This document shows positions 6,079 to 41,794 of a stretch of 64,000 nt of DNA, one piece after another. The stretch is from positions 32,001 through 96,000 of the IMG/VR virus record IMGVR_UViG_3300044591_002420, one strand, 5' to 3'. Position 1 is the first letter of the stretch. The number at the start of each line of letters is the position of its first letter. Origin of the DNA: a virus. The translations under genes and the position numbers were made by a program. Under the pieces are notes generated by a model. It saw only the letters and a list, made by a program, of their open reading frames with translations. It was not told the origin of the DNA and ran no database searches.

Positions 6079-6498
6079 ATGGAAATCTCTGACCTTGAAG
6101 ATAAAATTTCAGATCTAGATAATAAAATTGACGAACTTCGTTTTGAGCTTAACCAGCAAGTAGGATTTATTATTGGTGCTATATCTGAATTATCAGAGGA
6201 TTACATAACAACCGCGATCGTCAATAACTTATTAGCACATTCAATCCAAGAATATATCATTGATAATTATAAGAAATTTAGCAAAAAAATTGTTTCTACA
6301 ATTCTAGAATCAGAATATTTTTATGCCAATAATCTTTTCCGATATAATTATCATTCAAACATAACACACGATTCTAAAATATTAGAAGAATATCAATATT
6401 TGGAATACGTTCTAGACAATCCCAACTTAAGTCCATATAATAAAAAAGAAATTAAAAAACGTATAGCGAAACATAAAAGAGATCTCAAAAAACAATGA
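6079..6498 (+). CDS. Hypothetical coiled-coil protein
   Basis: ATG at 6079 (the ORF-track start at 6025 overlaps the tRNA). Confidence 0.65.
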   Translation: MEISDLEDKISDLDNKIDELRFELNQQVGFIIGAISELSEDYITTAIVNNLLAHSIQEYIIDNYKKFSKKIVSTILESEYFYANNLFRYNYHSNITHDSKILEEYQYLEYVLDNPNLSPYNKKEIKKRIAKHKRDLKKQ

Positions 6499-7262
6499 CT
6501 GAAGATGAATTGGGTAATAAGCTAAAACAACTAGAACAACAAGAAGCCGGAAGAAAAGCCGATCCTTATCTTCCTCTTATGGCAAGACTTGATGGTAACT
6601 GTTTTAGTAACTTTACAAGATCACTTGAAAGACCTTTTGATAAAAGATTTTGTGATCTTATGCTAGAAACAACAAAATACCTTGTTGAAGAAAGCGAAGC
6701 ATTATTGGGTTATTGTCAATCCGATGAGATTACTCTTTATTGGTATTTGGATAAACAAAACTTTTCTAATAGAGAATTTTGGTTTGGTGGAAAGTTTTAT
6801 AAAATTGCATCTATTTTATCATCAAAAGCTAGTTCTTTCTTCTCTGGTAATCTAGCTAATTATCTACCTGAGAAAGTCGGGGTCTATCCTGCATTTGATG
6901 CAAGAGTCTGGAGTGTTCCTGATCTTCATTGGGTTTATGAGAATTACTTATGGAGATTTAAAGATGCGAGAAAGAATTCTGTTTCCATGTATGCAAGAAA
7001 TTTCTTTTCTCATTCTCAACTTCATAAAAAATCTGGAGAGAAGATGAAAGAGATGCTAAGAGAAAATGGCACACCTTGGGAAGAATTGCCTGAATTTTTT
7101 AAGAGTGGCTCTTATGTTAAAAGACAGAGAATTTTGTTATCACTGGATGATTCTAGATGGACTGATGTTCCACTGCAATATAGACCAACAAAACCAATAG
7201 TAAGAACAGTTGTATCTCATTGGATCCCAGAAGAAACAGTAAATCCTAGCTGGTTTATGTGA
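6495..7262 (+). CDS. tRNA(His) guanylyltransferase / Thg1-like 3'-5' polymerase
   Basis: RLDG..FS.FT, QSDEI, FDAR, WR..DA.KNS motifs. Confidence 0.9.
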   Translation: MTEDELGNKLKQLEQQEAGRKADPYLPLMARLDGNCFSNFTRSLERPFDKRFCDLMLETTKYLVEESEALLGYCQSDEITLYWYLDKQNFSNREFWFGGKFYKIASILSSKASSFFSGNLANYLPEKVGVYPAFDARVWSVPDLHWVYENYLWRFKDARKNSVSMYARNFFSHSQLHKKSGEKMKEMLRENGTPWEELPEFFKSGSYVKRQRILLSLDDSRWTDVPLQYRPTKPIVRTVVSHWIPEETVNPSWFM

Positions 7263-9282: not shown

Positions 9283-9885
9283 ATGACGATCACTACAGAA
9301 CAAGTTAAGACTCTCAGAGAGAAAACCGGAGCCGGAATGATGCTCTGTAAAGAAGCACTCAAATCTTCTTCAGGAGATCAAGAAGGTGCAATACTTTGGC
9401 TCAGACAAAAAGGAATTACACTAGCCGATGGTAAGATCGGTAGATCTACTACCGAAGGTGCAATCGGAACTTATATTCATACTGGCAGCCGAGTTGGTGT
9501 GATGGTTGAGATTCTTTGTGAGACAGATTTTGTTGCAAAGACACCGGAATTTCAAGAACTGATTCGTAACATTGGAATGCAGATTGCGGCATGTCCTAAT
9601 GTTCAAGGTATCAGTCTAGATGATATTCCTCAGAGTTTTATTGATTCTGAAACTGCTCTTGAAATGAGTAAAGCTGATCTGGCCAATAAACCAGAAGCAA
9701 TTCGTCAAAAGATTGTAGAAGGAAGAGTTGGTAAGAAACTCAAAGAAGTTACGCTTATGAGCCAACCTTATGCTAAAGATTCTACCATTACAGTTGAAAC
9801 ATTAATCAAGAACTTTTCTGCTCAATTTGGTGAGAATATTGTTGTTAGACGCTTTGTGCGTTTTGTACTTGGTGAGGATCTATGA
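9283..9885 (+). CDS. tsf: Translation elongation factor Ts (short, cyanobacterial-type)
   Basis: VKTLREKTGAGMMLCKEAL, CETDFVA, RFVRFVLGE; 200 aa. Confidence 0.96.
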   Translation: MTITTEQVKTLREKTGAGMMLCKEALKSSSGDQEGAILWLRQKGITLADGKIGRSTTEGAIGTYIHTGSRVGVMVEILCETDFVAKTPEFQELIRNIGMQIAACPNVQGISLDDIPQSFIDSETALEMSKADLANKPEAIRQKIVEGRVGKKLKEVTLMSQPYAKDSTITVETLIKNFSAQFGENIVVRRFVRFVLGEDL

Positions 9886-10491: not shown

Positions 10492-10547
10492 GCCAATCCT
10501 GAAACCGTCCACTGCCTCTTGACAAACTAGCTCCTCCATGCTAGATT
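10492..10547 (+). promoter_or_regulatory. Sigma70-type promoter of the vWA/ncRNA operon, with upstream palindromic motif
   Basis: TTGACA 10519-10524, 17 bp, TG-c-TAGATT ending 10547; motif right arm AACCGTC at 10503-10509. Confidence 0.75.
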
Positions 10548-10558
10548 GAACAAGTTCA

Positions 10559-10622
10559 AAGATGAGACAGCAATTCCCTTCGCTCTTTCCTTTTAAGAAA
10601 ACCAAGCCAAAAAACTCATCTT
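10559..10622 (+). ncRNA. CAGCA-module hairpin H1 with tRNA-Lys(UUU)-like loop
   Basis: Stem AAGATGAG/CTCATCTT then ACAGCAA; inner TTTC-CTTTTAA-GAAA. Confidence 0.65.
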
Positions 10623-10643
10623 GTTTAATCACCCAAACTAATT

Positions 10644-10853
10644 ATGAATCCAACCCAATCACTAGAGCCTCATCAACAACGAATGATTGATGAGCATTCC
10701 GAACTTTCTCAACGTCTTTCTGATCTTCGCCGCTTTTTTGATAATCCTTATTTTAAAGATCTACCTGAAGCCGAACGAGTGCGCATGAAAGCTCAAGAGC
10801 TTTTTATGACTGGTTACGAAAACATCTTGAGCCAAAGAATCGCCGCTATCTGA
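10644..10853 (+). CDS. Small helical phage protein (crAss001_48-like family)
   Basis: HQQRMIDEHSEL..L..F...F..L...E...Q...M..Y..IL..RI pattern. Confidence 0.6.
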   Translation: MNPTQSLEPHQQRMIDEHSELSQRLSDLRRFFDNPYFKDLPEAERVRMKAQELFMTGYENILSQRIAAI

Positions 10854-10888
10854 ATTAAGTTAATTCCGCACCGATAACACACATTAAC

Positions 10889-12364
10889 TTGGAGAATACC
10901 ATGACTTTTATGAACGCTCTTTCTACCGAAATGAATAATACGATCACCGCAAATGGTGCAAAGGCATACGAATCAACTCAAAACGAATGTCTTGATCTCT
11001 ACGGTTCCATTGGTGCTTGTCGTAATAATCTCACTCTAGCAGAGCGTCTATTCTTTGCGGCATACGAACAACATCCAGAAACGGCAGTACGAATTCTGTT
11101 CTATTCTCGTGATATTCGCGGAGCAAGTCAAGGTGAACGCGCAGTCTTCCGAGCACTGATGCCTAAACTTGCTCATAAGAATCCAAGAATCGCAACACGT
11201 TTGGTGTCTTTGATTCCTTATTATGGTCGCTGGGATGATCTTCTGTGTCTAGAGAATACTCCAGTTTGGAATGAAGTCTTGAAAACCATTGAAACTCAAC
11301 TGAAGACGGATATGAGTAGCGATAAGACTTCGCTGCTTGCCAAATGGCTTCCTTCTATCAATGCATCATCTAAAGATAGTAAGCGACTGGGTAGGCTGAT
11401 CGCAGCTCATATGGGTTGGTCTGAACGTCAATATCGCAAAAATCTTTCTTCACTTCGGGCTAAGATCAAGATTGTTGAAACTCCGATGTGTGCGAAAGAA
11501 TGGAGTGTTATTGATTACGAGCATCTTCCTTCTCGTGCAGCATTCATGTATCGCAAGGCATTTAAGAAGCATGATGAGACTCGTTATTCAGATTATCTCT
11601 CACGAGTAGAGAAAGGTGAAGCTAAGATCAATGCGGGAACACTGTATCCTTATGATATTGTTAATAAGTATCTTTTTCAAGGTGCTCGTAATGATAAGAC
11701 TCTTGAACTTCAATGGAATGCCTTGCCCAATTACATGGAAGATCTAGAATTTAATGGTCTTGTTGTTGCCGATGTTTCTGGTTCTATGATGAATAATAGT
11801 GGTATGCCAATGGCAGTTTCCATCTCGCTTGCAATGTATATTGCTGAGCGTAATCCATCTAAGATCTGGAAGAATAAATTTCTGACTTTCTCTCAAGCTC
11901 CAAAACTTCAAACTATTCTAGGCAACAACATTGAAGAAAAAATTCGTTATCTACAAGGAGCTGAATGGGGTATGAATACTGATCTGATTGCAGTCTTTAA
12001 TACCATTCTGAAAGCTGCAACTGAGAATAATGTCGCTGCTAAAGACATGCCCCAAAAACTGATTATTGTTTCCGATATGCAATTTGATGTGGCATGTAGA
12101 TCCAATAAGCGTACTAACTTTGAGCAAATTCAAAAAATGTATCGGAAGTCTGGTTATGAGATGCCTCAGCTTATTTTCTGGAATGTAAACGCAAGTGCTA
12201 ATGTTCCGATTCAAGCTGATGACACTGGAACCGCATTAGTTTCTGGTTGTAGTCCTGCTATTCTGAAGTCTGTTCTGAGCGGTAAAATCGTATCTCCTGT
12301 GGATGTTATGATGGATAACCTTTATGTAGAACGTTATGCTCCGATTGGTGAAGTTTTTGCCTGA
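10889..12364 (+). CDS. Ro60/TROVE-like helical repeat + vWA protein (DUF2828-like)
   Basis: T.NGA..Y.ST, RDIRG..GER, YGRWDDL, LLAKWLPS, MIDAS DVSGSM, TFS, SDMQFD, IFWNV. Confidence 0.85.
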   Translation: MENTMTFMNALSTEMNNTITANGAKAYESTQNECLDLYGSIGACRNNLTLAERLFFAAYEQHPETAVRILFYSRDIRGASQGERAVFRALMPKLAHKNPRIATRLVSLIPYYGRWDDLLCLENTPVWNEVLKTIETQLKTDMSSDKTSLLAKWLPSINASSKDSKRLGRLIAAHMGWSERQYRKNLSSLRAKIKIVETPMCAKEWSVIDYEHLPSRAAFMYRKAFKKHDETRYSDYLSRVEKGEAKINAGTLYPYDIVNKYLFQGARNDKTLELQWNALPNYMEDLEFNGLVVADVSGSMMNNSGMPMAVSISLAMYIAERNPSKIWKNKFLTFSQAPKLQTILGNNIEEKIRYLQGAEWGMNTDLIAVFNTILKAATENNVAAKDMPQKLIIVSDMQFDVACRSNKRTNFEQIQKMYRKSGYEMPQLIFWNVNASANVPIQADDTGTALVSGCSPAILKSVLSGKIVSPVDVMMDNLYVERYAPIGEVFA

Positions 12365-12377
12365 TTGATAAATTCTT

Positions 12378-12427
12378 AAGATGGTTCAGCAATTCTCCTA
12401 TGTTTTGGGTACATAAAAGACCATCTT
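12378..12427 (+). ncRNA. CAGCA-module hairpin H2 with tRNA-Pro(UGG)-like loop
   Basis: Stem AAGATGGT/ACCATCTT, TCAGCAA; inner TATGT-TTTGGGT-ACATA. Confidence 0.7.
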
Positions 12428-12434
12428 GTTTAAC

Positions 12435-12550
12435 GGGCGGGTAGCTCAGTTGGTAGAGCAGTAGAGCACTTAAAACAAATCTAGTTTAGATTTTAACAGC
12501 ATTATAAATACAAAATCTCCGGGTCCTAGGTTCAAGTCCTAGTCCGCCCA
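12435..12550 (+). ncRNA. tRNA-like RNA T1 with permuted CAGCA module replacing the anticodon loop
   Basis: Acceptor GGGCGGG/TCCGCCC-A, D arm GCTC/GAGC, T arm CTAGG-TTCAAGT-CCTAG; ~50-nt anticodon region containing AAATCTA-GTT-TAGATTT-TAACAGCA. Confidence 0.75.
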
Positions 12551-12551
12551 T

Positions 12552-12598
12552 TAGATGATTCAGCAATTCTTTCTTTGCTAGGAACAAAAAATCATCTA
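12552..12598 (+). ncRNA. CAGCA-module hairpin H3
   Basis: Stem TAGATGATT/AATCATCTA, CAGCAA; inner TTCT-TTGCTA-GGAA. Confidence 0.7.
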
Positions 12599-12627
12599 GT
12601 CTTTTCATATTTTTATACTCAAACACA

Positions 12628-12681
12628 AAGATAGTTCAGCAAATTTAACACGAATGCCATCATGTTCATCACAACTATCTT
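12628..12681 (+). ncRNA. CAGCA-module hairpin H4
   Basis: Stem AAGATAGTT/AACTATCTT, CAGCAA; inner AACACGA-ATGCCA-TCATGTT. Confidence 0.7.
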
Positions 12682-12688
12682 GTTTACT

Positions 12689-12803
12689 GTCGTGTTCGTC
12701 TAACTTGATAGGACGCCTATAAAACAAATCTCGTTGAGATTTTAACAGCATTACAAATTTCCTTGTCCCGGAGGTAATCTAGGTTCAAATCCTAGACACG
12801 GCG
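12689..12803 (+). ncRNA. tRNA-Asp(GUC)-like RNA T2 interrupted by ~42-nt permuted CAGCA module
   Basis: Acceptor GTCGTGT/ACACGGC-G, T arm CTAGG-TTCAAAT-CCTAG; removing the insert restores CCTCC-TTGTCCC-GGAGG. Confidence 0.75.
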
Positions 12804-12804
12804 T

Positions 12805-12851
12805 TAGATGATTCAGCATTTATTTCTCTGCTAAGAAAACAAAATCATCTA
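12805..12851 (+). ncRNA. CAGCA-module hairpin H5 containing tRNA-Ser(GCU)-like loop sequence
   Basis: Stem TAGATGATT/AATCATCTA, CAGCAT; inner TTTCT-CTGCTA-AGAAA. Confidence 0.7.
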
Positions 12852-12878
12852 GTTAAACAACTCTTTCAACTCTCAAAA

Positions 12879-13124
12879 ATGTTCACTATCATCGTTGATT
12901 TACTCTCATCACTAATTGTATCAGTTATTCTTTTCTTTAGTGGCTTAAAATTGGGAGCTGATGCTATGAGGGACATGACTGTTATCTACTGTAATGAAAA
13001 TCCCACAATTTGTCAACAAGAATACAAGAATACGAAATCTCAGTATCCAAATCTTAATTTTACTGTAGAAGCTCCTTCTATTGGTCAAGAAAAACCCAAA
13101 GTGAACATTATTGATACAAAATAA
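12879..13124 (+). CDS. Small membrane-anchored hypothetical protein within the RNA array
   Basis: Hydrophobic N-terminal 25 aa. Confidence 0.65.
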   Translation: MFTIIVDLLSSLIVSVILFFSGLKLGADAMRDMTVIYCNENPTICQQEYKNTKSQYPNLNFTVEAPSIGQEKPKVNIIDTK

Positions 13125-13129
13125 CCAAC

Positions 13130-13203
13130 AGCGGGCGAGTGTAACGGTAGTCACGTCGGGCTCATAACCCGGAGGAATATGGGTTCAATTCCCAGGTCCG
13201 CCA
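13130..13203 (+). tRNA. tRNA-Met(CAU), initiator-type
   Basis: Anticodon arm TCGGG-CTCATAA-CCCGG (three G-C pairs), 1:72 mismatch (A/C), T loop TTCAATT. Confidence 0.88.
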
Positions 13204-13204
13204 T

Positions 13205-13261
13205 TAGATGATTCAGCAATTTCAAAACTTTCTTATTGGTTTAGAAAACAAAAATCATCTA
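13205..13261 (+). ncRNA. CAGCA-module hairpin H6
   Basis: Stem TAGATGATT/AATCATCTA, CAGCAA; inner TTTCT-TATTGGTTT-AGAAA. Confidence 0.7.
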
Positions 13262-13268
13262 GCTCATT

Positions 13269-13388
13269 AGAAGAGTAGCCCAATTGGTTGAGGCGAGCTT
13301 AGAAACAAAAAGCATCTTGTAAAAGATGATTCAGCATTAAAAATTCTAAGGAAAAGCTTTGATGTTGGTTCAAATCCAGCCTCTTCTA
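13269..13388 (+). ncRNA. tRNA-like RNA T3 with permuted CAGCA module in extended anticodon arm
   Basis: Acceptor AGAAGAG/CTCTTCT-A, D stem GCC/GGC, T arm GTTGG-TTCAAAT-CCAGC; arm CTTAGAA..CATCTT-GTAA-AAGATG-ATTCAGCA..TTCTAAG. Confidence 0.75.
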
Positions 13389-13463
13389 TCTGGATAAATA
13401 ATATCCAACAGACTTTAACACAACAAAAACGATCACTTAGTCTGTGTGATCTCAAGGAAACAA

Positions 13464-14183
13464 ATGATGTACTCAAATCAATTTGCCGCAACAATCAAGG
13501 TAAACAATAAAATTCTCCGGGAGTTTGGAGACACTGTTTATCTTCCCTTCGGTTCCGAATATCAAATTCGTCTTAAAAATCTCAATACAACAAGAGCCAA
13601 AGTAACAGTTGAAATTGACGGACAAAATGTTACTGATGGTGGTCTTGTTATTGATTCATTCCAAACTGTTGATCTAGAACGATTCATTCGTAATGGTAAT
13701 CTTTCCGAAGGAAATCGCTTTAAATTTATTGAACGAACTTCTAAAATTGAAGATCATCGTGGAATTAAACTAGAAGATGGTTTGATTACAATTCGTTATG
13801 AGTATGAGATGTCTTATGCTCCTTTATACGATTTTAAATATCCAAAAGCACAAAAAAATAATTTTATTAATGAATGTTCATATCGCAGTATGAACATCAA
13901 TTCGGGACCAACAGCTAAGTTAACCTCTCAGACTGAAACTGGAATTACTGTAGAGGGTTCCAAGAGTAATCAAAAATTTAATACTACTTCTTGGAGAGGA
14001 TCAATTGGTGGCTCTCATGTGATGGTTATTAAACTTTTGGGTGAAACAAAAGAGAACAAAAAAGTAAGAGAACCTGTTACCATCAAGACTAAACTAGAGT
14101 GTAAAACTTGCGGAACAACTAATCCTGTAACCTCAAAGTTCTGTTCTGAGTGTGGAACTTCTTTAGAGATTGTAGGTGGATAA
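13464..14183 (+). CDS. Beta-rich protein with C-terminal zinc ribbon
   Basis: LPFGSEYQIRLKN N-terminal domain; CKTCG...FCSECG; AAGGA upstream of ATG 13464. Confidence 0.75.
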   Translation: MMYSNQFAATIKVNNKILREFGDTVYLPFGSEYQIRLKNLNTTRAKVTVEIDGQNVTDGGLVIDSFQTVDLERFIRNGNLSEGNRFKFIERTSKIEDHRGIKLEDGLITIRYEYEMSYAPLYDFKYPKAQKNNFINECSYRSMNINSGPTAKLTSQTETGITVEGSKSNQKFNTTSWRGSIGGSHVMVIKLLGETKENKKVREPVTIKTKLECKTCGTTNPVTSKFCSECGTSLEIVGG

Positions 14184-14248: not shown

Positions 14249-14764
14249 ATGAATCAACAGCGCCAAGATTTTTACCACAAGCTCAACGAAAGTCTTGAAG
14301 AAGATAGAAAATATTTTCTTGACATTTTGACTAGAACCGATAATTCTGCTAAACTACTTCAATGGATTATTGATAATAATATCAATCCCTATGCAGTGCT
14401 TCCATTTTATCTCGCGGGATCTTATTATGGTTTTGAAGCTTTTATCAGTCTTTACACATCTCTCACTTATCATGAGAAACATGCAGAATTCACTTATCTT
14501 AATATCAAAAGAAAGAATCCAAATGGACACGAATTTGAACTTGGACCTAAAGTCGTTCTAAGACATCCATCCGATTCAGATTTTAAAGAAGGTGTTATAC
14601 GAGATCTAGATTTAAAAGAAGTAGATTCTTTTGATGGTGAAGTATTCGTTTATGAGTTTGAGATTCTTAAGAGTTTAGATGAATTTATTGAAACTTTTAT
14701 CCGAGTAGAAAAAGAATATCTAAATCTCTATGAAGAGATGGATCATATTATTGGACAATTTTAG
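14249..14764 (+). CDS. Hypothetical protein
   Basis: 171-aa ATG ORF. Confidence 0.7.
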   Translation: MNQQRQDFYHKLNESLEEDRKYFLDILTRTDNSAKLLQWIIDNNINPYAVLPFYLAGSYYGFEAFISLYTSLTYHEKHAEFTYLNIKRKNPNGHEFELGPKVVLRHPSDSDFKEGVIRDLDLKEVDSFDGEVFVYEFEILKSLDEFIETFIRVEKEYLNLYEEMDHIIGQF

Positions 14765-15383
14765 CATGAATCAAAAACCTTCATGGGCAGAATCTCCAGA
14801 CTGGGCTGTGTGTCTAGGATTCGCTTTTTCTGGTGATGATTACGACTTCTATAGTGAAATATACGGCGAAGAAAATGTAAAGGTAATGAAGCGGCGGTGG
14901 TGTTATTTTTCTTATCCGAATCCGATAGGCATTGTAAATCTTGAATATCGTCCAGAAGATAATATTATCAAAAAATATATGGTATGGTTATGGGCAATAG
15001 AAGGCATCGGAATTCTAATCCCCGTTGAATCTCCCCTTTCAAAGATAAAACTTCAAAATTATTATAATCTCTTAATTCCTTCATTAAAAAGAGTTGATGT
15101 TTACACAGAATCTCAATTCAAAGAACAAAAATTTTCTTGGTCAAAAAATACACCGGTAAAGGTAGAATACGCTGATTATAATTGTCTGACTGATAATCTT
15201 CAGAGACAATTTACCAAACTAACAAAAGAATATAATACTTTATCCAACAGACTTTCTAATCCTAATTTTGAAGAAAAAGCACCAAAAGATATCGTCTTAA
15301 AATGTCAAACTGATTATGAAAGAGTCAAAGCCGAACTAATCCTTATTGAAAGTAAATTAAAACTATCATGCAAATCTCACTAG
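14730..15383 (+). CDS. Hypothetical protein with C-terminal ValRS tRNA-binding-arm-like coiled coil
   Basis: LSNRLSNPNFEEKAPKDIV resembles the ValRS C-terminal KLxNxxFxxKAPxxVV. Confidence 0.6.
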   Translation: MKRWIILLDNFSMNQKPSWAESPDWAVCLGFAFSGDDYDFYSEIYGEENVKVMKRRWCYFSYPNPIGIVNLEYRPEDNIIKKYMVWLWAIEGIGILIPVESPLSKIKLQNYYNLLIPSLKRVDVYTESQFKEQKFSWSKNTPVKVEYADYNCLTDNLQRQFTKLTKEYNTLSNRLSNPNFEEKAPKDIVLKCQTDYERVKAELILIESKLKLSCKSH

Positions 15384-15820
15384 AAGAACTTCAAGAAATC
15401 TTTGATAAAGTTCTTACCGAAGTAAAAGTAAAAAAATGTTGCTCCGAATCAGATAAAATTTTACTATCCAAAGATCCCAAAACACCAGAAGAAACACTAC
15501 TAATCTTAGCGACCGATGTGAATCCTGATGTTCGTTATTTTGTAGCACAAAATCCCAATACTCCACCAAAAGCCCTTGAACAACTAGCCATAGATGAATA
15601 TCATGGTGTTCGTTGTTGTGTAGCAAATAATCCAAATACTCCACCAAAAGTCTTAGAAATTCTAGCGACCGATGAGGAATATTGTGTTCGTTGGAGAGTA
15701 GAACTAAATCCAAACCATAACCCAAAAGAGACTCTTGAAGTAACTAAACAACAAAAAGAAGCTCTTAAGAAATTGATTGATGCTAGCCAAGATGTATCAC
15801 TTAAATCTATCAATCTTTAA
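15368..15820 (+). CDS. LRV-repeat protein (alternative-cap subfamily)
   Basis: Repeats plus tail VTKQQKEALKKLIDASQ. Confidence 0.88.
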   Translation: MQISLEELQEIFDKVLTEVKVKKCCSESDKILLSKDPKTPEETLLILATDVNPDVRYFVAQNPNTPPKALEQLAIDEYHGVRCCVANNPNTPPKVLEILATDEEYCVRWRVELNPNHNPKETLEVTKQQKEALKKLIDASQDVSLKSINL

Positions 15821-31730: not shown

Positions 31731-32093
31731 TTGATTATGTGTCATTATCTCCAATCATGGAATCCAAACACACCACCAAAAACACTGGAACAACTAGCAA
31801 CCGATGAATATTATTTGGTTCGTTGGAACGTAGCAAATAATCCAAACACACCACCAAAAACACTGGAACAACTAGCAACCGATGAATATTATTTGGTTCG
31901 TTGGAACGTAGCAAATAATCCAAACACACCACCAAAAGTTCTAGAAATTCTAGCGACCGATAAGGAGTATCGGGTTCGTTATGGGGTAGCAATAAATCCA
32001 AACACTCCACACTACATCAAAAAGTATCTTAAAATTCAAGAACATCTTAGGACACTCCACAAACTGTCACATCCTCAACACCATACCACCTAA
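31731..32093 (+). CDS. LRV-repeat protein with two identical 78-bp units
   Basis: 31761-31838 equals 31839-31916. Confidence 0.9.
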   Translation: MIMCHYLQSWNPNTPPKTLEQLATDEYYLVRWNVANNPNTPPKTLEQLATDEYYLVRWNVANNPNTPPKVLEILATDKEYRVRYGVAINPNTPHYIKKYLKIQEHLRTLHKLSHPQHHTT

Positions 32094-33602: not shown

Positions 33603-34000
33603 ACAAATTTAGAACATCAAAAAGCCGACGTACTTCACCAAAAGTCTTAGAAATTCTAGTGACCGATGAGGATCGTAATGTTCGTTCCAAAGTAGCACGA
33701 AATCCAAACACACCACCAGAAGTCCTAGAACAACTGGCAACAGATCAGGATTATGTTGTTCGTTATGCTGTAGCAACACATCTAAACACTCCACCGAAAG
33801 TTCTAGAACAACTATCGACCGATGATATATTGGATGTTCGTTGGGATATTGCAGAAAATCCAAACACTCCACCAAAAGCTCTAGAACAACTAGCGAGCGA
33901 TGAGGATTTTTCTGTTCGTTGTAGCGTAGCAGAAAATCCAAACACACCACACTTCATCAAGAAGTATCTTAAACTTCAAGAACATCTAAAAACATTATGA
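33599..34000 (+). CDS. LRV-repeat protein
   Basis: Four repeats plus cap. Confidence 0.9.
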   Translation: MNKFRTSKSRRTSPKVLEILVTDEDRNVRSKVARNPNTPPEVLEQLATDQDYVVRYAVATHLNTPPKVLEQLSTDDILDVRWDIAENPNTPPKALEQLASDEDFSVRCSVAENPNTPHFIKKYLKLQEHLKTL

Positions 34001-34482
34001 AATACTTAATGCTCTCGGGAATCCCAACTAGCGGAAAATCCACTTATGTAAATAAGCTCCGGGAAAATCCTTATTGGCAATCTGCAGTAATCTTATCTAC
34101 CGATAATTATATTACTAAGATAGCAGAAGAGTCCGATACCACTTATGATGATGTTTTTGAAGAACATATTACTGAAGCAACAAGACAGCTACACTTAGAT
34201 TTACAAGAAGCAATCAAACACAATAAACCAATTATTCATGATCAGACTAATCTAACAATCAAAACTAGAGCAAAAAAACTTAGCAATATTCCTGAACGTT
34301 ATCAGAAGATTGTTGTTCATTTTGAAGTTCCGCTAGAAGAAGCACTGAGAAGAAATAAATGTCGTCCAGGAAAGTTTATTTCTGAAGATATTATCAAAAG
34401 AATGTTTTATACTTTTGAACCACCGACTTCAGACGAAGGATTCAATCTAGTCTTGAGGTCAGATCAAGAACTACTAATTTGA
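33997..34482 (+). CDS. P-loop kinase, polynucleotide kinase-like (AAA_33)
   Basis: GIPTSGKST, STD, DQTNL...R, RRN..R. Confidence 0.85.
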   Translation: MKYLMLSGIPTSGKSTYVNKLRENPYWQSAVILSTDNYITKIAEESDTTYDDVFEEHITEATRQLHLDLQEAIKHNKPIIHDQTNLTIKTRAKKLSNIPERYQKIVVHFEVPLEEALRRNKCRPGKFISEDIIKRMFYTFEPPTSDEGFNLVLRSDQELLI

Positions 34483-34488
34483 AATTTT

Positions 34489-35952
34489 ATGGAAACCCGA
34501 GAATCACGTTTAAATAAAATCAATAACATAAATTGTCCATATGCTGTTAAATTTAATCCTAGCAGTAGAGTGATTTATTTACAAGAAAACCATAAACACT
34601 TGGCACCCGGAGCCGAATGTCAAACAGAAGTTAGTATAGCGGGGAGAGTTATATCAAAAAGAGTTTTTGGTAAACTAGCCTTTTTTACATTATTGGACGA
34701 AACAGGAACAATTCAAGCTTATATTGATAAAGGTTACCTAGACAGTTTTAATAATTTATATTTTTCTGAATTAACAACATTGGTTGATATCGGTGACTGG
34801 ATTGGCCTTAGCGGACATCTTAAAGGAACCGAAAAAGGAGAATTATCAGTAAAGGTTAGAACTTGGCAGATGCTTTCTAAGGCACTTCAATCTTTACCTG
34901 ATAAATGGCATGGATTAATTGACGTTGAAAAACGTTACAGACAAAGATATCTTGATTTAATTAGTAATCCGAAAAATAAAGAAATCTTTTATAAGAGATC
35001 TAAAATCATAAAGACTATCCGAAATTTTTTAGATGAACAGAATTTCTTAGAAGTAGAAACTCCTATTCTTCAAACTGAAACGGGTGGAGCAGATGCTAGA
35101 CCCTTTCTGACGCATCATAACACTTTAGATATCCCTCTTAATTTGAGGATTGCGACGGAACTTCACCTGAAAATGATGATTGTTGGGGGATTTGAAAGAA
35201 TTTATGAAATTGGTAGAATTTTTAGAAATGAAGGAATAAGTACAAAACACAATCCAGAATTCACCTCTATTGAAATTTATAGTGCTTTTTCTGATTATTA
35301 CGACATGATGGATTTAGTACAAAAACTTATCTCTGAATGTTGTAAACAAGTATGTGATTCTGAGATTATTGAATATCAAGGCAACTTAATAGATTTTTCC
35401 TTTGGATTTCGTCGTGTTTCAATGCATGAAATTGTAGAGGAAAAAACAGGTTTAAATTTTAATAATTTCAATACTTGCCAAGAAGCTATTATTGAATTGA
35501 ATAAAATGGGAATTGAACCTAGATCAAGTGATTCTTTGGGGCGACTTCTTAATGATGTTTTTGAGCAAAAAGTGGAAAATGAATTAATTCAACCGACAAT
35601 TGTTATGGATTATCCGATAGAGATATCTCCTCTTGCCCGGCCTCATAGAAGCAAATCTGGTTTGGTTGAAAGATTTGAACTTTTTGTTGCAGGAAGAGAA
35701 TTGGCGAATGCATTTAGTGAATTGATTGATCCGATAGACCAAAGAGCCAGATTTGAAGAACAACAACAAAGAAAAATAAATGGAGATTTAGAGGCACAAA
35801 ATATAAATGAATTATTCTTAGAAGCACTTGAGGTAGGAATGCCGCCAACTGGAGGACTAGGTATAGGAATCGATAGATTAGTTATGTTACTAACTGATAG
35901 TGCATCAATTCGTGAAGTTATCGCTTTCCCTTTATTGAAACCCACCAATTGA
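34489..35952 (+). CDS. lysS: Lysyl-tRNA synthetase (class II)
   Basis: [24 protein letters not shown]...[27 protein letters not shown]. Confidence 0.97.
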
Positions 35953-36166
35953 GGACAGATCAAGAACTGTCCATCTGACAAGCATTCCCACATCATAAAA
36001 GAGTAGACTTAAAACCCTATGTCCAAAAATAAATCAAATGGTGAGTTTTTATTAAACTATATGAAGACGAGAAGGTGAAAATTATTACTAAGGGAGAAAA
36101 AGGAAAAGATCCATCTAGTTTTGCTTCTACCACTGTTATACTTAAAGATACCAAAGATTCTGAAAA

Positions 36167-36958
36167 ATGAAAATTAAACTATTATCGGATCTACATCTAG
36201 ATCAGGCGAAAGATCTTTCAATAATTGATTATTACACCGAAACGATTCTTGCGTCCGGTGATCTTCTCATATTGGCCGGTGATATTTTATCATCCAAACA
36301 TCTTTCTTCTGATGGATTTCTGAAGAACATTTATATCTCTTTCTTCCGAGAATGCTCTAAACGGTACGATAAGATTATCTATGTAATGGGTAATCATGAG
36401 CATTTTGGATATAATTGTAGTCGTACAAAAAATAAGATACAAGAATTTCTGCCGAATAACTTCTATCTGCTAGAGAATCAAACTCTTCAAATTGATAATT
36501 GGAATTTCATTGGTTTTACCTTATGGACTGATTTCAATAGAGCAAATCCGTTAGATATGATAAATGCATCGTCTTATATGAATGATTATAAGACAATTAG
36601 AATTACTGAGCGTTATCGTAAACTCAGACCCGAAGACTCACTCGCATTTCATCGCGGAAGTTTGCACTTTCTAAAAGAGCAACTCAATTTGATGAGCGAT
36701 AATGTTTTCGTGATCAGTCATCATACTCCGAGTTATCGTTCGGTTCCACCTAAATTTATCAGCAATCTTCATAATTCGGCTTATTGTACTTCACTAGATG
36801 AGCTTATTATGGATTCTCCACAGATTAAGTATTGGGCTCACGGTCATACACATTGGCAACAAGATTATTATATTGAACAATGTAGAGTATTATGTAATCC
36901 TCATGGTTATTATGGAGAAACTACTGGATTCAATCCTAATTTTGAATTGGAAATCTAA
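36167..36958 (+). CDS. Calcineurin-like metallophosphoesterase
   Basis: SDLH, AGD, GNHE, SHH.P, HGHTH, NP.GY. Confidence 0.9.
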   Translation: MKIKLLSDLHLDQAKDLSIIDYYTETILASGDLLILAGDILSSKHLSSDGFLKNIYISFFRECSKRYDKIIYVMGNHEHFGYNCSRTKNKIQEFLPNNFYLLENQTLQIDNWNFIGFTLWTDFNRANPLDMINASSYMNDYKTIRITERYRKLRPEDSLAFHRGSLHFLKEQLNLMSDNVFVISHHTPSYRSVPPKFISNLHNSAYCTSLDELIMDSPQIKYWAHGHTHWQQDYYIEQCRVLCNPHGYYGETTGFNPNFELEI

Positions 36959-37050
36959 TTAAAATGTCGTGCCACTCACACAACTGTCCACCGAAATCCA
37001 CTTCTTCTTTCACCATCTGCTAAACTGAATTCACAAACAACGGAGTAATT

Positions 37051-37404
37051 ATGGGCTATCTCACGACCTTTACTGTCTATAATGATTTTGCACATGATAT
37101 CAAAAAGGATCCCAAGCAATTTGGTGAAAAAGTTTATGAACATATCTGTGAAATGGAGACTGGCGATGTTAGTCTGGAAATCGGCAATTATTGCGCGACG
37201 GTTGCTATTGGTCAACATTCTCGTCATGCCGATGATCTCACAATCTATGTTCACATGGGAAATTGTGTGACCGAAGTGAATCCATATTCGCGCTCTTTTC
37301 AGGAATTAGTCAATAAAAATCCTCAGTTTGCAGATAAATTGATTAATTTTATTGAGGCAGAATTGGAGGAATTGAAAAAATTCAAACAAACAAAAAATAA
37401 TTGA
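37051..37404 (+). CDS. Hypothetical protein
   Basis: ATG ORF after a promoter motif. Confidence 0.65.
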   Translation: MGYLTTFTVYNDFAHDIKKDPKQFGEKVYEHICEMETGDVSLEIGNYCATVAIGQHSRHADDLTIYVHMGNCVTEVNPYSRSFQELVNKNPQFADKLINFIEAELEELKKFKQTKNN

Positions 37405-37413
37405 GGTATTATC

Positions 37414-38262
37414 ATGGGCTGCTGGAACAAAACTTGTGGATTTTCGGGTCTTTCTATTATGGTGGGAGACCCGGTTTATGTCTTTGTTTTGAAGAAAAGC
37501 GATTATTATGATCCATGCTCTTCAACTTCAGAATATACACCATTTCTTGCACCATTTGAGAGTTTTTATAATGATTATGGAAGTGGTGAAAATTCTAGAG
37601 GAGTCTGGCTACCATATATTATGGAAGCTCTTAAGAAGAAACTTATTGAAATGGAGGTCGGGGAAAATAAATGTCATGACATTGCAGTAAAACGCGATGA
37701 TTTTGATGTGGATCTTTTCTTCTCGGCAATTAAAGAAGATCGGTTGTTTATTAATAAACATCAACCGAGTAATGCTATTCGTTTTACGATGATGCATAAA
37801 AGTATCATTGATAAAATGTTAGAAGAATTTGAGTTCCGCCATTATGATTTTTTTAGGGAAATGGGGAAATGGGATTATAAATTTGCCGATATTATCACAA
37901 GAGTTGAAAATTATTGGAATAATATTAAATCATTTTATAACATCCATCAATTAATTGATTTTAATTATGATTCAATCATTGGGTCTTATATTTTCCATTA
38001 TATGTCAACCATCAATTTTATACCGATAAGAGAAGTTATCGGCGAATGCCTACAAAATAACACCGAAGATGAAGTTGCTATTAATCTCATTAAAGAATAT
38101 CTCAAAGGATTACACGTTGAGATAATGATGAATCATCTTCGCAAAACTTGGCTACCTGGAGGATTTGAAGGTTCACAGGATTGTGAGTATGATGCATATA
38201 AACTATTAGTCAATATTACACTAGAACATATTAAAGAAAAAGAAGAAGAATTGGATTATTAA
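37414..38262 (+). CDS. Hypothetical phage protein
   Basis: MGCWNKTC..S.L.I, YNDYG, GSQ. Confidence 0.7.
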   Translation: MGCWNKTCGFSGLSIMVGDPVYVFVLKKSDYYDPCSSTSEYTPFLAPFESFYNDYGSGENSRGVWLPYIMEALKKKLIEMEVGENKCHDIAVKRDDFDVDLFFSAIKEDRLFINKHQPSNAIRFTMMHKSIIDKMLEEFEFRHYDFFREMGKWDYKFADIITRVENYWNNIKSFYNIHQLIDFNYDSIIGSYIFHYMSTINFIPIREVIGECLQNNTEDEVAINLIKEYLKGLHVEIMMNHLRKTWLPGGFEGSQDCEYDAYKLLVNITLEHIKEKEEELDY

Positions 38263-38458
38263 ATGTCAAGAACACACCGAAGACAACCAGAAGAAAAGAC
38301 TTGGTTTAAGCGCAATTATCGCCGACCGAGAACCTTTAATGAGAAAAAACAAATTGAAGATCTTATTCACGATGAAGATGTGAAACTAAGCAATCGTGAA
38401 AAATCAAAACTCAATAATCTTCCAACCGCCTGGGATGACATCCGTAAAAGTTCCACTT

Positions 38459-39142
38459 ATGAACAAGATTACCATTAAGTATCCAAGAACATTACATCTT
38501 CCATGGTCGGAAGGAATAACCTCAGATGATAAGAAAATAAAAACATTGAATAATTTTCATGGTAGAAGTGTCATTATAACAGAAAAGATGGATGGTGAAA
38601 ACACTACAATGTATAGGAATAATATACATGCGCGTTCATTAGACAGTCGCGGAGGAGAAGACCGCGCATGGATAAAGAATTTTTGGTCAACTTTTTCATA
38701 TAAAATTCCAGAAAACTATAGAATTTGTGGTGAAAATCTTTGGGCTAAACATAGCATTTATTATCAACATTTGAAGTCTTATTTTTACGGATTTAGTGTC
38801 TGGAATGGAAATCTCTGTCTTAGTTGGGAAGAGACTAAACTGTTCTTTGAAGATCTAGGAATTTATTCTGTTCCGATTCTTTATGAGGGAATCTGGAATG
38901 AAGATCTGATTCGTAATCTACAGAATACTATTAATTTACAAGAAGTTGAAGGGTATGTTGTAAGATTAGCAGATGAATTCTCTTGTGAAAATTTTGATTG
39001 CAGTGTTGCTAAATTTGTAAGAACCAATCATGTCCAAACGAATAATCATTGGCGCAGTGATAATTTCATACCAAATCGGCTATCAAATGATATTTCTCAA
39101 GAAGAATCTCTCATTACAACAATAGGAGAAAACGCAAAATGA
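38459..39142 (+). CDS. ATP-dependent RNA ligase family protein
   Basis: KYPRTLHLPWS, EKMDGEN, GENL, EGYVVR, AKFVR. Confidence 0.9.
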   Translation: MNKITIKYPRTLHLPWSEGITSDDKKIKTLNNFHGRSVIITEKMDGENTTMYRNNIHARSLDSRGGEDRAWIKNFWSTFSYKIPENYRICGENLWAKHSIYYQHLKSYFYGFSVWNGNLCLSWEETKLFFEDLGIYSVPILYEGIWNEDLIRNLQNTINLQEVEGYVVRLADEFSCENFDCSVAKFVRTNHVQTNNHWRSDNFIPNRLSNDISQEESLITTIGENAK

Positions 39143-39491
39143 AGATTGAAGACATGGTTCAAGATATTGTCAGGGAAGGAATTCCAGTGACAATTAAATA
39201 TAATAAAGAGACAGATGAAATTCGTTATTATATTCCGGGATTTTATAAGTCCGATGGATCAGTTTATTTGGTAGAGGAAGAGGGTTGTAGAATTTTCTGC
39301 TATCAAAGATATGGCGAAAAAACAGAATTGTACGATAATAACTTTATGGACAGTCTTGTTGGTGTGAATTATTATTGGTGGTCGGTAACAAAAGAAAGAA
39401 ATCCAGGTTCCACAATTCTTCCAGATGATTATTGGAAAGAACATCTAATAAAATCTGGACGTATTAAAGTTGTAACTAAAACTGAATACGT

Positions 39492-40022
39492 GTGAATAAA
39501 GAACTTATTGATCATCTAAAATCAAGACATCTAAATTTAGAACTTCATCGTCCAATTCTTGATGAAGAACTTTCAATAGCAACCTTTCTTTTTTATAATC
39601 TATCAGAACAACTTGTTGGTTATCAACAATACAATCCCAATGGTGATAAAAAGATCTTCAACTCAAAATTAGGTGGTCGTTATTACACTTATCGTAAACA
39701 ACCAACAATTGCTATTTGGGGCCTAGAATCATATTACATTTCAGATGGACCAATTTTTATCACTGAGGGTATTTTTGACGCAGCAAGATTTACTGAAAGA
39801 AATCAGACTGCATTTGCTGTTTGTAGTAATGATCCACCGAAGGATTATAAAAATTGGTTTGATACATTACCGAGAAAAGTTATTGCGATTTGTGATAATG
39901 ATCCTGCCGGTGAAGAACTGGCTAAGTTTGGAGATTATTATGAAATTGTTCCCGACAACAAAGATGTAGGAGAATCTTCTGAAGAATATGTTCGTTATCT
40001 TATTGAGAAATACACAAAATGA
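39492..40022 (+). CDS. Stand-alone TOPRIM (primase-like) protein
   Basis: ITEGIFDA, CDND.AG, KDVGE. Confidence 0.8.
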   Translation: MNKELIDHLKSRHLNLELHRPILDEELSIATFLFYNLSEQLVGYQQYNPNGDKKIFNSKLGGRYYTYRKQPTIAIWGLESYYISDGPIFITEGIFDAARFTERNQTAFAVCSNDPPKDYKNWFDTLPRKVIAICDNDPAGEELAKFGDYYEIVPDNKDVGESSEEYVRYLIEKYTK

Positions 40023-41794
40023 CTATTATTAAAAACTATCGCACTCATAATTGCGGTCAATTGACATCTAAAAATGTTAATGAGATCGTGACACTTTCTG
40101 GATGGATTGATCGTAGACGCGATCATGGTAAATTGATTTTTATTGATCTTCGTGATAGCAGCGGAGTGATTCAATTAGTTTTATCTAATGAAAATTCTGA
40201 ACGTCTGAGAGTTGAGACTGTTATTCTGATTACAGGTAATGTTATTTCCAGACCGATTGAGAATATCAATAATGAAATTTCAACAGGAGAGATAGAAGTA
40301 GAAGTGAGCGATTTAATTATTCTAAACGAGGTTAAACACGTTCTACCATTTTCTGTTTCAAGAAATGAAAGAACTGTTGTGAATGAAGAGTTACGTTTAC
40401 AGAATCGTTATCTTGATCTTAGAAGTAAACGCATGAGTGATAATATACGAATGCGCCATAAAGTAACAAGATCCATTCGTAATTTCTTAGAATCGGAAAA
40501 TTTTATTGAAGTTGAAACACCTATTCTTAATCGTTCAACTCCAGAAGGTGCAAGAGAATACTTGGTACCAAGTAGAATCTATAAAGGAGAATGGTTCTCT
40601 CTTTCTCAATCACCACAACTGTTTAAACAGATGCTGATGGTGGGTGGAATTGAAAGATATTATCAAATTGCACGATGCTTCAGAGATGAATCTTTAAGAG
40701 TTGATCGACAACCAGAATTTACACAAATTGATTTAGAGATGAGCTTCATGTCTCAAGATGAAATTCTTTCTCTTAGTGAGAGAATGATTTCTACTATCTG
40801 GAAAGAAGCAAAAGGAGAAGAATTGTCCATTCCTTTTTCTAGAATGAGTTGGAAAGAATCAATGGAGAGATATGGAACAGATCGGCCAGATATTCGCTAT
40901 GGATTAGAATTATCCGATGTTTCAAAGATCTTTTCTGATTGTGGTTTTAAGGTATTTTCCAATGTGATTAAAAGTGGTGGAGTTGTTAAATGTATTACCA
41001 TCAATTCTAACAACGAATCAATTACAAAATCTCGTCTTAAAATTGGAGGAGATTTAAATGATTTGGCGATAAATTTGGGTTCCGGTGGACTCGCATATAT
41101 CAAAATAAATGACGACCATGAATTTGATTGTATCAATGCCATTAAAGACAATTTAACAGAATTCCAAAAAACTGAACTGTTAGAAATAACAGAAGCTACA
41201 TCTGGAAGCTTGATTATATTTTGCGCTGGTACTTCTGATGTCGTCAATAAAACACTAGGCAAAATTCGTCAAGTTCTCGCAGAGGAATTGAATCTCATTA
41301 CGAATATGAATTCCTTTTTGTGGATTGTTGATTTTCCTATGTTTGAATATAATCCAATTGAGAATAAATTGTGTTCACTCCATCATCCTTTTTGTGCTCC
41401 AAATGAAGACGATTTAGGAACCGAACCCGATTTATGGTCTGAGCGAATTGTTCACTGCCGAGCACAATCTTATGATTTGGTTCTCAATGGATACGAATTG
41501 GGTGGTGGATCATTACGAATTCATGATTCCGAATTACAGAGAAAAGTTTTACAGATTCTCGGTCTTTCTGAAGAAAAGATTGATGATCAATTTGGATTTC
41601 TTTTAAATGCATTGGATTCTGGCGCTCCTCCTCATGGCGGATTGGCTTTTGGTTTAGATAGAATTGTTATGCTTCTTTTGAATGAAGAATCCATTCGTGA
41701 TGTTATTGCCTTTCCGAAAAGCTCACAAACTAGATGTCTACTAACGGGTGCTCCTTCAACTGTTTCAGATAATCAACTTCTTGAATTTGAATAG
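40019..41794 (+). CDS. aspS: Aspartyl-tRNA synthetase
   Basis: RTHNCG, RRDHG.LIFIDLRD, STPEGAR, QSPQLFKQ, FRDE..R.DRQPEFTQ, HHPF, GAPPHGG.AFGLDR. Confidence 0.97.
   Translation: MTIIKNYRTHNCGQLTSKNVNEIVTLSGWIDRRRDHGKLIFIDLRDSSGVIQLVLSNENSERLRVETVILITGNVISRPIENINNEISTGEIEVEVSDLIILNEVKHVLPFSVSRNERTVVNEELRLQNRYLDLRSKRMSDNIRMRHKVTRSIRNFLESENFIEVETPILNRSTPEGAREYLVPSRIYKGEWFSLSQSPQLFKQMLMVGGIERYYQIARCFRDESLRVDRQPEFTQIDLEMSFMSQDEILSLSERMISTIWKEAKGEELSIPFSRMSWKESMERYGTDRPDIRYGLELSDVSKIFSDCGFKVFSNVIKSGGVVKCITINSNNESITKSRLKIGGDLNDLAINLGSGGLAYIKINDDHEFDCINAIKDNLTEFQKTELLEITEATSGSLIIFCAGTSDVVNKTLGKIRQVLAEELNLITNMNSFLWIVDFPMFEYNPIENKLCSLHHPFCAPNEDDLGTEPDLWSERIVHCRAQSYDLVLNGYELGGGSLRIHDSELQRKVLQILGLSEEKIDDQFGFLLNALDSGAPPHGGLAFGLDRIVMLLLNEESIRDVIAFPKSSQTRCLLTGAPSTVSDNQLLEFE

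Follow-up and report, generated by a model that had tools for sequence, protein, structure and literature searches.

tRNA-shaped RNAs carrying a circularly permuted handle beside the gene of a predicted Ro60-like protein in a freshwater cyanophage

Results and discussion

The RNA array and its surroundings

The DNA analysed here, referred to throughout as the window, is a 64,000-nucleotide (64-kb) stretch of the viral record IMGVR_UViG_3300044591_002420 (positions 32,001 to 96,000). This record is a 125-kb freshwater cyanophage sequence, approximately 51% complete, whose nearest named relatives are Synechococcus phages B3 and B23 (Kyanoviridae). The subject of this study is a compact unit on the + strand of the window, at 10519-13388, which consists in order of a promoter-like site, a small RNA named Mu, a gene for a 491-amino-acid (aa) protein, and an array of M0, T1, M1, M2, T2, M3, an 81-codon open reading frame (ORF), an ordinary tRNA-Met, M4 and T3 (Table 1). 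T1, T2 and T3 are the tRNA-shaped RNAs that had been singled out in a preliminary description of the sequence; they are placed 71-905 nucleotides (nt) downstream of the protein gene and on its strand. The spacing of the array is regular, in that an M RNA starts 0 nt after the discriminator of a T RNA or tRNA and ends 6 nt before any T RNA that follows it. Support for the promoter-like site at 10519 is limited to its match to the consensus, 10 such sites having been found in the region against 9.3 expected.

Table 1 Features of the RNA array and of the RNA healing and sealing region of the window
Feature	Position	Strand	Details
Promoter-like site	10519..10547	+	TTGACA, 17 nt, TAGATT, with TG; about 10 nt 5' of the first handle RNA
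Mu, free-standing handle RNA	10558..10623	+	closing stem AAGATGAG/CTCATCTT, CAGCAA, A-rich strand; covariance model R1 53.4 bits
Ro60-like protein gene, 491 aa	10889..12364	+	Pfam DUF2828 and DUF7788 (vWA-like); predicted Ro60 fold (AlphaFold/Foldseek)
M0, free-standing handle RNA	12377..12428	+	inner hairpin TATGT-TTTGGGT-ACATA; R1 44.1 bits
T1, tRNA-shaped with handle	12435..12550	+	handle hairpin 12477-12493, CAGCAT 12497-12502; without anticodon loop; Rfam tRNA 44.1 bits
M1, free-standing handle RNA	12551..12599	+	directly after T1 discriminator (gap 0 nt); R1 55.5 bits
M2, free-standing handle RNA	12627..12682	+	3' end 6 nt before T2; R1 34.5 bits
T2, tRNA-shaped with handle	12689..12803	+	handle hairpin 12726-12742, CAGCAT 12746-12751; discriminator G
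T2 anticodon-type hairpin	12758-12774	+	loop TTGTCCC, GTC at 12765-12767
M3, free-standing handle RNA	12804..12852	+	directly after T2 discriminator; R1 60.4 bits
Ordinary tRNA-Met(CAT)	13130..13203	+	inside the array; ARAGORN and Rfam
M4, free-standing handle RNA	13204..13262	+	directly after tRNA-Met, 3' end 6 nt before T3; R1 67.2 bits
T3, tRNA-shaped with handle	13269..13388	+	handle hairpin 13313-13328 (CATCTT-GTAA-AAGATG), CAGCAT 13332-13337; without anticodon loop; Rfam tRNA 36.0 bits
AAA_33 kinase	33997-34482		
Class IIb aminoacyl-tRNA synthetase	34489-35952		
Metallophosphoesterase	36167-36958		
Rnl2-type RNA ligase	38396-39142		
Aspartyl-tRNA synthetase	40019-41794		with GAD domain

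Structure of T1, T2 and T3

T1, T2 and T3 had been described as having the acceptor, D and T arms of a tRNA, and their pairing bears this out. The acceptor stem (7/7 pairs) and the T stem (5/5) are complete in all three RNAs, and the D stem is complete in T1 and T2 (4/4) and one pair short in T3 (3/4), G-U pairs being present in both the acceptor and the D stem of T2. The D loop of T2 is without GG. The stretch from the D stem to the T stem measures 66, 64 and 69 nt in T1, T2 and T3, respectively; since it is about 22 nt in an ordinary tRNA, the excess amounts to 42-47 nt, in agreement with the 40-50 extra nucleotides originally estimated. All three RNAs fold more stably than their shuffled counterparts (z = -2.6, -2.46 and -2.1 for T1, T2 and T3), and the minimum-free-energy structure of T2 consists of five distinct arms.

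Default ARAGORN left T1, T2 and T3 uncalled. With the intron option, which had been proposed as a check, T1 and T3 were called but T2 was not. The Rfam tRNA model (RF00005, gathering score 29) also recognised T1 and T3, leaving 52 and 57 nt unaligned in the anticodon arm, and gave no match for T2 even at E ≤ 10. We then made 434 trial deletions in T2, of which 39 produced an ARAGORN tRNA call; 32 of these 39 were tRNA-Asp(GTC), including the deletion of 12719-12760, and together with the discriminator G they uphold the cryptic tRNA-Asp that had been proposed for this RNA. The corresponding deletions in T1 and T3 gave many mutually inconsistent calls with scattered anticodons, and we therefore regard both as being without an anticodon loop. 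T1 and T3 exceed the tRNA gathering score and have no coherent anticodon loop, and T2 shows the reverse. The original placement of the insert in the anticodon arm holds in that the extra sequence lies between the D and T stems of all three RNAs; it does not hold in detail, as T1 and T3 offer no coherent anticodon loop and the insert of T2 is not in the loop but precedes or interrupts the 5' strand of the anticodon stem. A related strain (runs X24 and X4) has T instead of C at 12520 and C instead of G at 12522, and these changes would complete a 6-bp (base-pair) GTAGAG/CTCTGC helix in T1, two off the tRNA register, so that the anticodon-arm stem of T1 may be out of the canonical register.

The order of elements within the insert is identical in T1, T2 and T3: an A-rich strand, a hairpin of 6-7 bp, 3 nt and CAGCAT, the reversed arrangement already recognised in the preliminary description. 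We refer to this set of elements as the handle. The inserts of T1 and T2 agree at 32 of 37 positions, and two of the differences constitute a compensatory pair (TCTA/TAGA versus TCTC/GAGA), again as first reported. When the window was searched for the bare motif (A-rich flank, hairpin, CAGCA[AT]), T1-T3 were the three matches on the + strand; three more were found on the - strand, which makes the bare motif weak evidence when taken alone. Its weight comes from its placement inside tRNA scaffolds and its recurrence in relatives.

Free-standing M RNAs and the circular permutation

Besides the six M RNAs of the window, relatives contain 27 more that are distinct, and all are built from a closing stem, the motif (T)CAGCA(A/T)TT, a middle part that varies and an A-rich strand. 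Their closing stem is paired in 99.2% of alignment cells, against 22-43% in slid controls, with five of its eight pairs changed on both sides, and none of 500 shuffles was as good. A covariance model (R1) built from the cyanophage M RNAs identified the six M RNAs and nothing else in the 64-kb window, and 32 places in 79 sources, all of them near the homologue of the 491-aa protein gene and on its strand.

Comparison of the M RNAs with the hairpins of T1 and T3 revealed how the two forms are related. M1, M3 and M4 start with TTAGATGAT and end with ATCATCTAG, while the hairpin of T1 reads ..TCTAG-T-TTAGA..; similarly, M0 and M2 start with AAGAT and end with ATCTTG, and the hairpin of T3 reads CATCTTG-TA-AAAGATG. 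The hairpin of a T RNA is the closing stem of an M RNA joined end to end, and the handle of the T RNAs is a literal circular permutation of the M RNAs. The term "circularly permuted" used in the preliminary description is literally true in this sense, because the T hairpins correspond to the 5' and 3' ends of M RNAs joined together.

The inner hairpin of Mu (CTTTC-CTTTTAA-GAAAA) resembles the anticodon arm of tRNA-Lys(UUU), and that of M0 the anticodon arm of tRNA-Pro(UGG). We considered whether every M inner hairpin is an anticodon-arm mimic and found the resemblance limited to Mu, M0, B3a, L12u1 and a few others, the loops of M1, M3 and M4 being of 6-9 nt.

The 491-aa protein

Pfam analysis of the 491-aa protein returned only DUF2828 and the vWA-like DUF7788. 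Its structure was modelled with AlphaFold from 56 sequences, with a predicted local distance difference test score of 93.9 and a predicted template modelling score of 0.92. A Foldseek search with this model gave 12 matches in the PDB at E ≤ 0.001, all of which were Ro60, Rsr or TROVE proteins aligned over the full length with template modelling scores of 0.38-0.61, a phage Ro60 (9l5y) included. The matches below these top 12 were isolated vWA domains with E > 0.05. The residues of the metal-ion-dependent adhesion site (MIDAS) pattern DxSxS...T...D, namely D295, S297, S299, T364 and D396, are invariant in the 56 sequences. As modelled, the protein has the architecture of Ro60, a HEAT-repeat ring combined with a vWA domain that contains a MIDAS.

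The DUF2828 family comprises 6903 clusters at 50% identity and is present in 696 phage records, including those of Felixounavirus, Listeria, Staphylococcus and mycobacteriophages. Our literature search found no published work on the function of DUF2828.

Conservation in relatives

Loci encoding homologues of the protein were drawn from viral contigs, genomes and named phages; they are designated below by L numbers where they need to be told apart. T-type RNAs were counted in 87 such sources, whose homologues are 38-95% identical to the window protein, and 92 copies were found in 37 of them, none on the strand opposite to the gene, at a median distance of 634 nt upstream or 392 nt downstream. 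One of the carriers is Synechococcus phage B3; the T-type gene recorded for phages B3 and B23 has the coordinates MN695334 221705-221814. The intron option of ARAGORN yielded 101 "intron" calls in the relatives, 87 of them distinct, and 81 of the distinct sequences contained CNGCA[AT]. In 79 of these 81 a perfect hairpin of at least 5 bp ended no more than 5 nt before the motif, as compared with 789 of 3000 random positions. In an unfitted MAFFT alignment of 69 distinct sequences, pairing of the T hairpin was 79%, as opposed to 25-44% in slid controls; double changes were seen in 96 cells, and again none of 500 shuffles was as good. Decay of tRNA genes into pseudogenes, the outcome that had been named as the refuting case, is contradicted by this conservation and covariation. 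The insertion point is not constant among relatives, where it was found at 26/27, 28/29 or 29/30, and at 29/30 it breaks the anticodon stem.

With a looser M-type scan, 49 of 78 viral loci and 51 of 80 genome loci had hits no more than 1 kb from the gene. Hits outside the gene were distributed between the + and - strands as 116 versus 21 in the viral loci and as 111 (96 upstream and 15 downstream) versus 33 in the genome loci. The strict T-type motif, searched through the ARAGORN intron option, was present in only 3 of 80 bacterial and archaeal loci; the M-type scan gave a much richer yield. Rfam 15, searched over the array region at E ≤ 10, reported tRNA only and no riboswitch, ribozyme or intron family, and in 12 viral and 8 bacterial homologue loci it reported tRNA and unrelated matches only.

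The cassette M2-T2-M3 is missing from the two closest relatives, L008 and L009. In L008 (95% protein identity; 6120-6500) the counterpart of T3 matches the window through the first T-stem half, beyond which the sequence is unrelated, as if interrupted by an insertion. Some named phages have annotations worth recording at this locus. In Listeria phage LMTA-57 a gene for a "tRNA-splicing ligase" (RtcB; L181, 6841-8052) is located 1.3 kb downstream of the DUF2828 gene, mycobacteriophage DirkDirk has a gene for a band-7-like protein 0.9 kb upstream of its Ro-like gene (L178, 679-1575), and in Klebsiella phage KP2025 an annotated 432-nt "tRNA-Arg-TCT" (L180, 3887-4318) runs into the DUF2828 coding sequence. 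The last of these probably arose because an intron-tolerant tRNA search was misled by a handle RNA.

Comparison with YrlA and other known RNAs

In other phages the handle is found at the two ends of an RNA. The DirkDirk homologue is annotated as "Ro-like RNA binding protein", and in one of the handle RNAs downstream of it, at L178 4023-4142, GGACTC-TAG-CAGCAA and GGAGTCC flank a T arm, a closed acceptor and a D arm. This sequence aligned end to end with the Rfam YrlA model (RF02553) with 39.8 bits, not reaching the gathering score of 69. By eye, two further RNAs, at L179 4921-5044 in the Felixounavirus Alf5 and at L180 5824-5940 in KP2025, have the order stem half, CAGCAA, spacer, anticodon-type hairpin, T arm, closed acceptor, D arm, A-rich strand and second stem half. 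If the acceptor of these RNAs is opened and the stem closed, the order obtained is exactly that of T2. The Alf5 protein is 36.9% identical to the window protein, and the Alf5 gene with its downstream region recurs at 96.4% DNA identity in phage JohannRWettstein, which we take to be Bas63.

In the published description of YrlA, a tRNA is circularly permuted and continues on its anticodon-stem side into the Ro60-binding module (Wang et al. 2018, 10.1101/312249), and Ro60 with Y RNAs has been reported in phages (Chen et al. 2014, PMC4201824). YrlA with Ro60/Rsr resembles the cyanophage system in combining a tRNA-like domain (D and T arms) with a protein-binding stem that has an internal loop, in an A-rich strand before the 3' stem half, and in its location within a few kb of a gene for a ring-plus-vWA protein, on the same strand. 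The two differ in that YrlA has a closed acceptor and has its two ends in the Ro60-binding stem, whereas T1-T3 have tRNA order, an open acceptor and a loop-closed handle; in that the window protein belongs to DUF2828 and not to Pfam TROVE; and in that T2 and many of its relatives carry an extra anticodon-type hairpin. The YrlA model gave no match to T1-T3 at E ≤ 10 over 12200-13600.

Related phage systems have been published. The Ro60 of Thermus phage phiLo (PDB 9l5y) binds the adjacent Y-like RNAs Yrl1 and Yrl2, the binding and a link to polynucleotide phosphorylase having been established by experiment (PMC12135203). It shares with the cyanophage locus a phage ring-plus-vWA protein, small partner RNAs beside the gene, and a 5'-3' stem flanking an internal loop with a short conserved motif; in the accessible part of that report, however, the phiLo RNAs have a CGAA motif and are not described as tRNA-shaped. 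The Felixounavirus Bas63 protein gp130 has been called Ro60-like; it is encoded upstream of tRNA genes, some of them suspected Y RNAs, and counters the Ppl defence (PMC11482910). The part of that preprint at hand names no RNA, handle motif or permuted tRNA form.

By published description only, the M handle also resembles the Class I RNAs of dictyostelid amoebae, which are about 60 nt long, start with AAG and have a covarying 5'/3' stem and, beside the 5' stem half, a conserved, unpaired 11-nt motif (C6, C9, A10, A11); these are RNAs of eukaryotes, known to be bound by an RRM protein (Kjellin et al. 2021, PMC7919456). Among the nine handles of the window, the motif positions C6, C9 and A10 are present in 9/9, while position T3 is restricted to the RNAs T1 and T2, and A11 to five M RNAs; in T1-T3, unlike in Class I RNAs, the stem is loop-closed inside a tRNA. 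Some archaeal and algal tRNA genes have non-canonical introns or a permuted order, with bulge-helix-bulge motifs and a splicing endonuclease. Extra sequence at unusual anticodon-arm sites (such as 29/30) and circular permutation between gene forms are common to these genes and the handle RNAs, but no endonuclease was found in the phage genome, which is 51% complete, and no bulge-helix-bulge could be drawn by eye at the T2 boundaries. The CAGCA(A) handle, its three layouts and its tRNA-order form were not found in Rfam or in the papers searched, of which Chen et al. 2014 may include mycobacteriophage handle RNAs among the YrlA of 22 phages in its Tables S1 and S2.

Proposed function and alternative explanations

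On this evidence T1-T3 are probably unspliced, Y-RNA-like partner RNAs of the Ro60-like protein and the tRNA-order counterparts of YrlA. One of the two explanations put forward in the preliminary description, that of Y-RNA-like tRNA mimics with a protein handle, is favoured by the predicted Ro60 fold of the neighbouring protein and by the occurrence of the handle both as free-standing RNAs and at RNA termini in other phages. The last point is our main reason for preferring a handle, since a sequence found at the termini of an RNA cannot be an intron.

We propose that T1-T3 would be stable small RNAs, each built on a tRNA scaffold in which an additional arm separates the D arm from the anticodon-arm position. 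The handle, made of the A-rich strand, the hairpin and (U)AA-CAGCA-UUA, would be a putative dock for the Ro60-like protein encoded upstream, and the M RNAs would present the same handle opened at its hairpin loop, with the stem joining the two ends of the RNA. The array is probably transcribed as one RNA from the promoter-like site and cut by the ordinary tRNA processing enzymes. The tRNA body, together with the Asp-type anticodon hairpin in the case of T2, would then constitute a tRNA look-alike tethered to the protein, which likely engages or diverts proteins that read or cut tRNAs in phage-host conflict.

A number of observations weigh against this assignment. T-type RNAs are absent from 50 of the 87 homologue-encoding sources. 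The Ro60 relation of the window protein rests on the fold search, since sequence searches found none: Pfam TROVE (PF05731) had no match in the genome, and no Ro60 was among the phmmer matches to PDB chains. The Rsr-binding motif GNCGAA(N0-1)G has a single match in 10500-13500, at 10770 and outside all RNA elements, the handles having CAGCA(A/T) instead. A proper anticodon hairpin is kept in T2 and in 46 further distinct T RNAs (47/81), and these 47 hairpins follow the rules of tRNA, with U33 in 36/47, a purine at position 37 in 39/47, A37 after U36 in 24/26 and G37 after G36 in 5/6. T2 has the Asp identity elements G73, G10, GUC and C38, and the AspRS (aspartyl-tRNA synthetase) that had been claimed for the phage is indeed encoded, as are a kinase, a phosphoesterase and an Rnl2-type ligase, which together form an RNA healing and sealing set interleaved with synthetase genes at 33997-41794. 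Of 46 T anticodons, no more than 8 are also found in an ordinary tRNA from the same locus, the loci being cut at 3-4 kb. Lastly, although contigs from one RNA library, whose share of the stretch is 0.05, span 12449-12677 and 12652-12802, contain both inserts and nowhere skip an insert, they are weak evidence against splicing, because they derive from a related strain (17 and 6 differences) and may reflect DNA carry-over; they give no RNA ends, strand or level, the uncovered parts carry no information, and a spliced form could have been missed because ordinary RNA sequencing recovers mature tRNAs poorly.

These anticodon-hairpin statistics are what real decoding tRNAs or intron-bearing precursors would be expected to show. 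If the T RNAs were such precursors, the handle would mark a segment excised in a protein-dependent manner, as a mini-intron, from the pre-tRNA, after which the kinase, phosphoesterase and ligase, whose genes adjoin two class IIb synthetase genes, would heal and seal the exons and convert T2 into tRNA-Asp. The 32 of 39 deletion calls for tRNA-Asp(GTC) and the low anticodon overlap, which fits a gap-filling role, are in keeping with this explanation, the other of the two originally offered. We nevertheless consider it unlikely, as T1 and T3 yield no coherent anticodon under any deletion, the insertion point and the distances from handle to splice site vary, the handle also exists free-standing and at RNA termini without exons, the library contigs retain the inserts, and the T2 product would have C37, which is unusual in a working tRNA. 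Neither a tRNA splicing endonuclease (PF01974) nor an RtcB family member had a match in the genome, which is 51% complete, and no group I intron or ribozyme was matched by Rfam; a search for the T4 Rnl1 family had no match either and was uninformative, the controls being equally without match. Two apparent junctions in DNA runs X4 and X5 (12461>12520 and 12460>12521) were considered as spliced forms and rejected, since the 15-17 other letters that they carry form an ordinary CTTTTAA anticodon arm, from tRNA genes of other organisms whose tRNA body is similar.

Alternatively, the T RNAs could be working tRNAs with a permanent fifth arm, charged and used by the ribosome with the handle projecting close to where a long variable arm would be, and guarded or regulated by the Ro60-like protein. 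The anticodon-loop rules, the five-armed fold of T2 and the Asp elements, which recur in the distant relative L079 together with C37/C38 after GTC (loop CTGTCCC), would all be accounted for, as would the T anticodons of L015 and L017, which complement the ordinary tRNA set. This explanation too appears improbable in view of T1 and T3, which are without anticodon loop, of the unusual C37, and of the relatives in which the insert breaks the anticodon stem at 29/30. Moreover, four T families place Ser, Leu or Tyr anticodons on bodies with variable loops of 3-5 nt. Bacterial tRNAs for Ser, Leu and Tyr have long variable arms, so that these families point to mimicry rather than decoding.

A fixed amino-acid identity is also hard to square with the anticodon swaps. 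When 24 pairs of T RNAs with identities of 85% or more were compared, differences affected 11 of 72 positions in the anticodon triplet, as against 127 of 2781 elsewhere; these pairs are not independent and represent some five or six separate switches. Near-identical bodies were found with CCA, GCA or GTA (L010 7184, L012 5671 and L013 5672), GAT or GGT (L031 1813 and L051 1679), TCT or GTT (L055 2513 and L063 2487), and TGT or TGG. Such unusually frequent swaps suggest bait for anticodon-reading proteins.

The idea that handles are processing punctuation or selfish repeats, that is, RNase or terminator signals or mobile repeats in and between tRNA genes that have left T1-T3 disabled, would explain the regular spacing, the loss of M2-T2-M3 in L008 and L009 and the interrupted T3 counterpart of L008, but it is very doubtful, given that the strand, order and covarying hairpin of the handle are kept down to 38% protein identity, that the handle is tied to one protein family and one strand in phages and bacteria alike, and that the tRNA arms of T1-T3 are still paired.

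Returning to partner RNAs of the Ro60-like protein, the swaps, the Ser, Leu and Tyr anticodons on short variable loops, the L079 loop, the RtcB gene of LMTA-57 and the counter-defence activity in Felixounavirus together suggest that the handle RNAs may be tethered look-alikes of tRNAs or anticodon arms that act in conflict. A more specific and distinctly tentative version is that the T and M RNAs are anticodon-arm decoys held on the Ro60-like protein, which would soak up or report host enzymes that cut or read certain anticodons; exchange of the triplet on a constant scaffold would re-aim the set, the kinase, phosphoesterase and ligase could reseal cut RNAs, and the T-order RNAs would be the un-permuted link between tRNA and YrlA.

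Phage Ro60 with Y RNAs, the structure of a Ro60-RNA complex from phiLo and a Ro60-like Felixounavirus protein with suspected Y RNAs are already in print. The Ro60/Y RNA particle has long been studied. What the present analysis would add, judging from sequence comparison, is a recognisable candidate partner RNA for the large DUF2828 branch of Ro60-like proteins. One handle is used in three layouts, as a free-standing hairpin, in YrlA order with the handle at the ends, and in tRNA order as in T1-T3, and the last of these shows a possible route from tRNA to Y RNA. The tRNA-order form also accounts for many of the "pseudo", "OTHER" or "intron" tRNA calls in phage annotation. Tractable carriers are available in Felixounavirus and Synechococcus phage B3, and one homologue has a counter-defence phenotype.

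Neighbouring genes

The 81-codon ORF inside the RNA array (12879-13124) is without a family match, and the gene that follows T3 (13446-14183) encodes 245 aa with a zinc ribbon at the C terminus. Also near the array are genes for an EF-Ts homologue (9283-9885), a protein that has the C-terminal tRNA-binding arm of valyl-tRNA synthetase (14730-15383) and an LRV/HEAT repeat protein (15368-15820).

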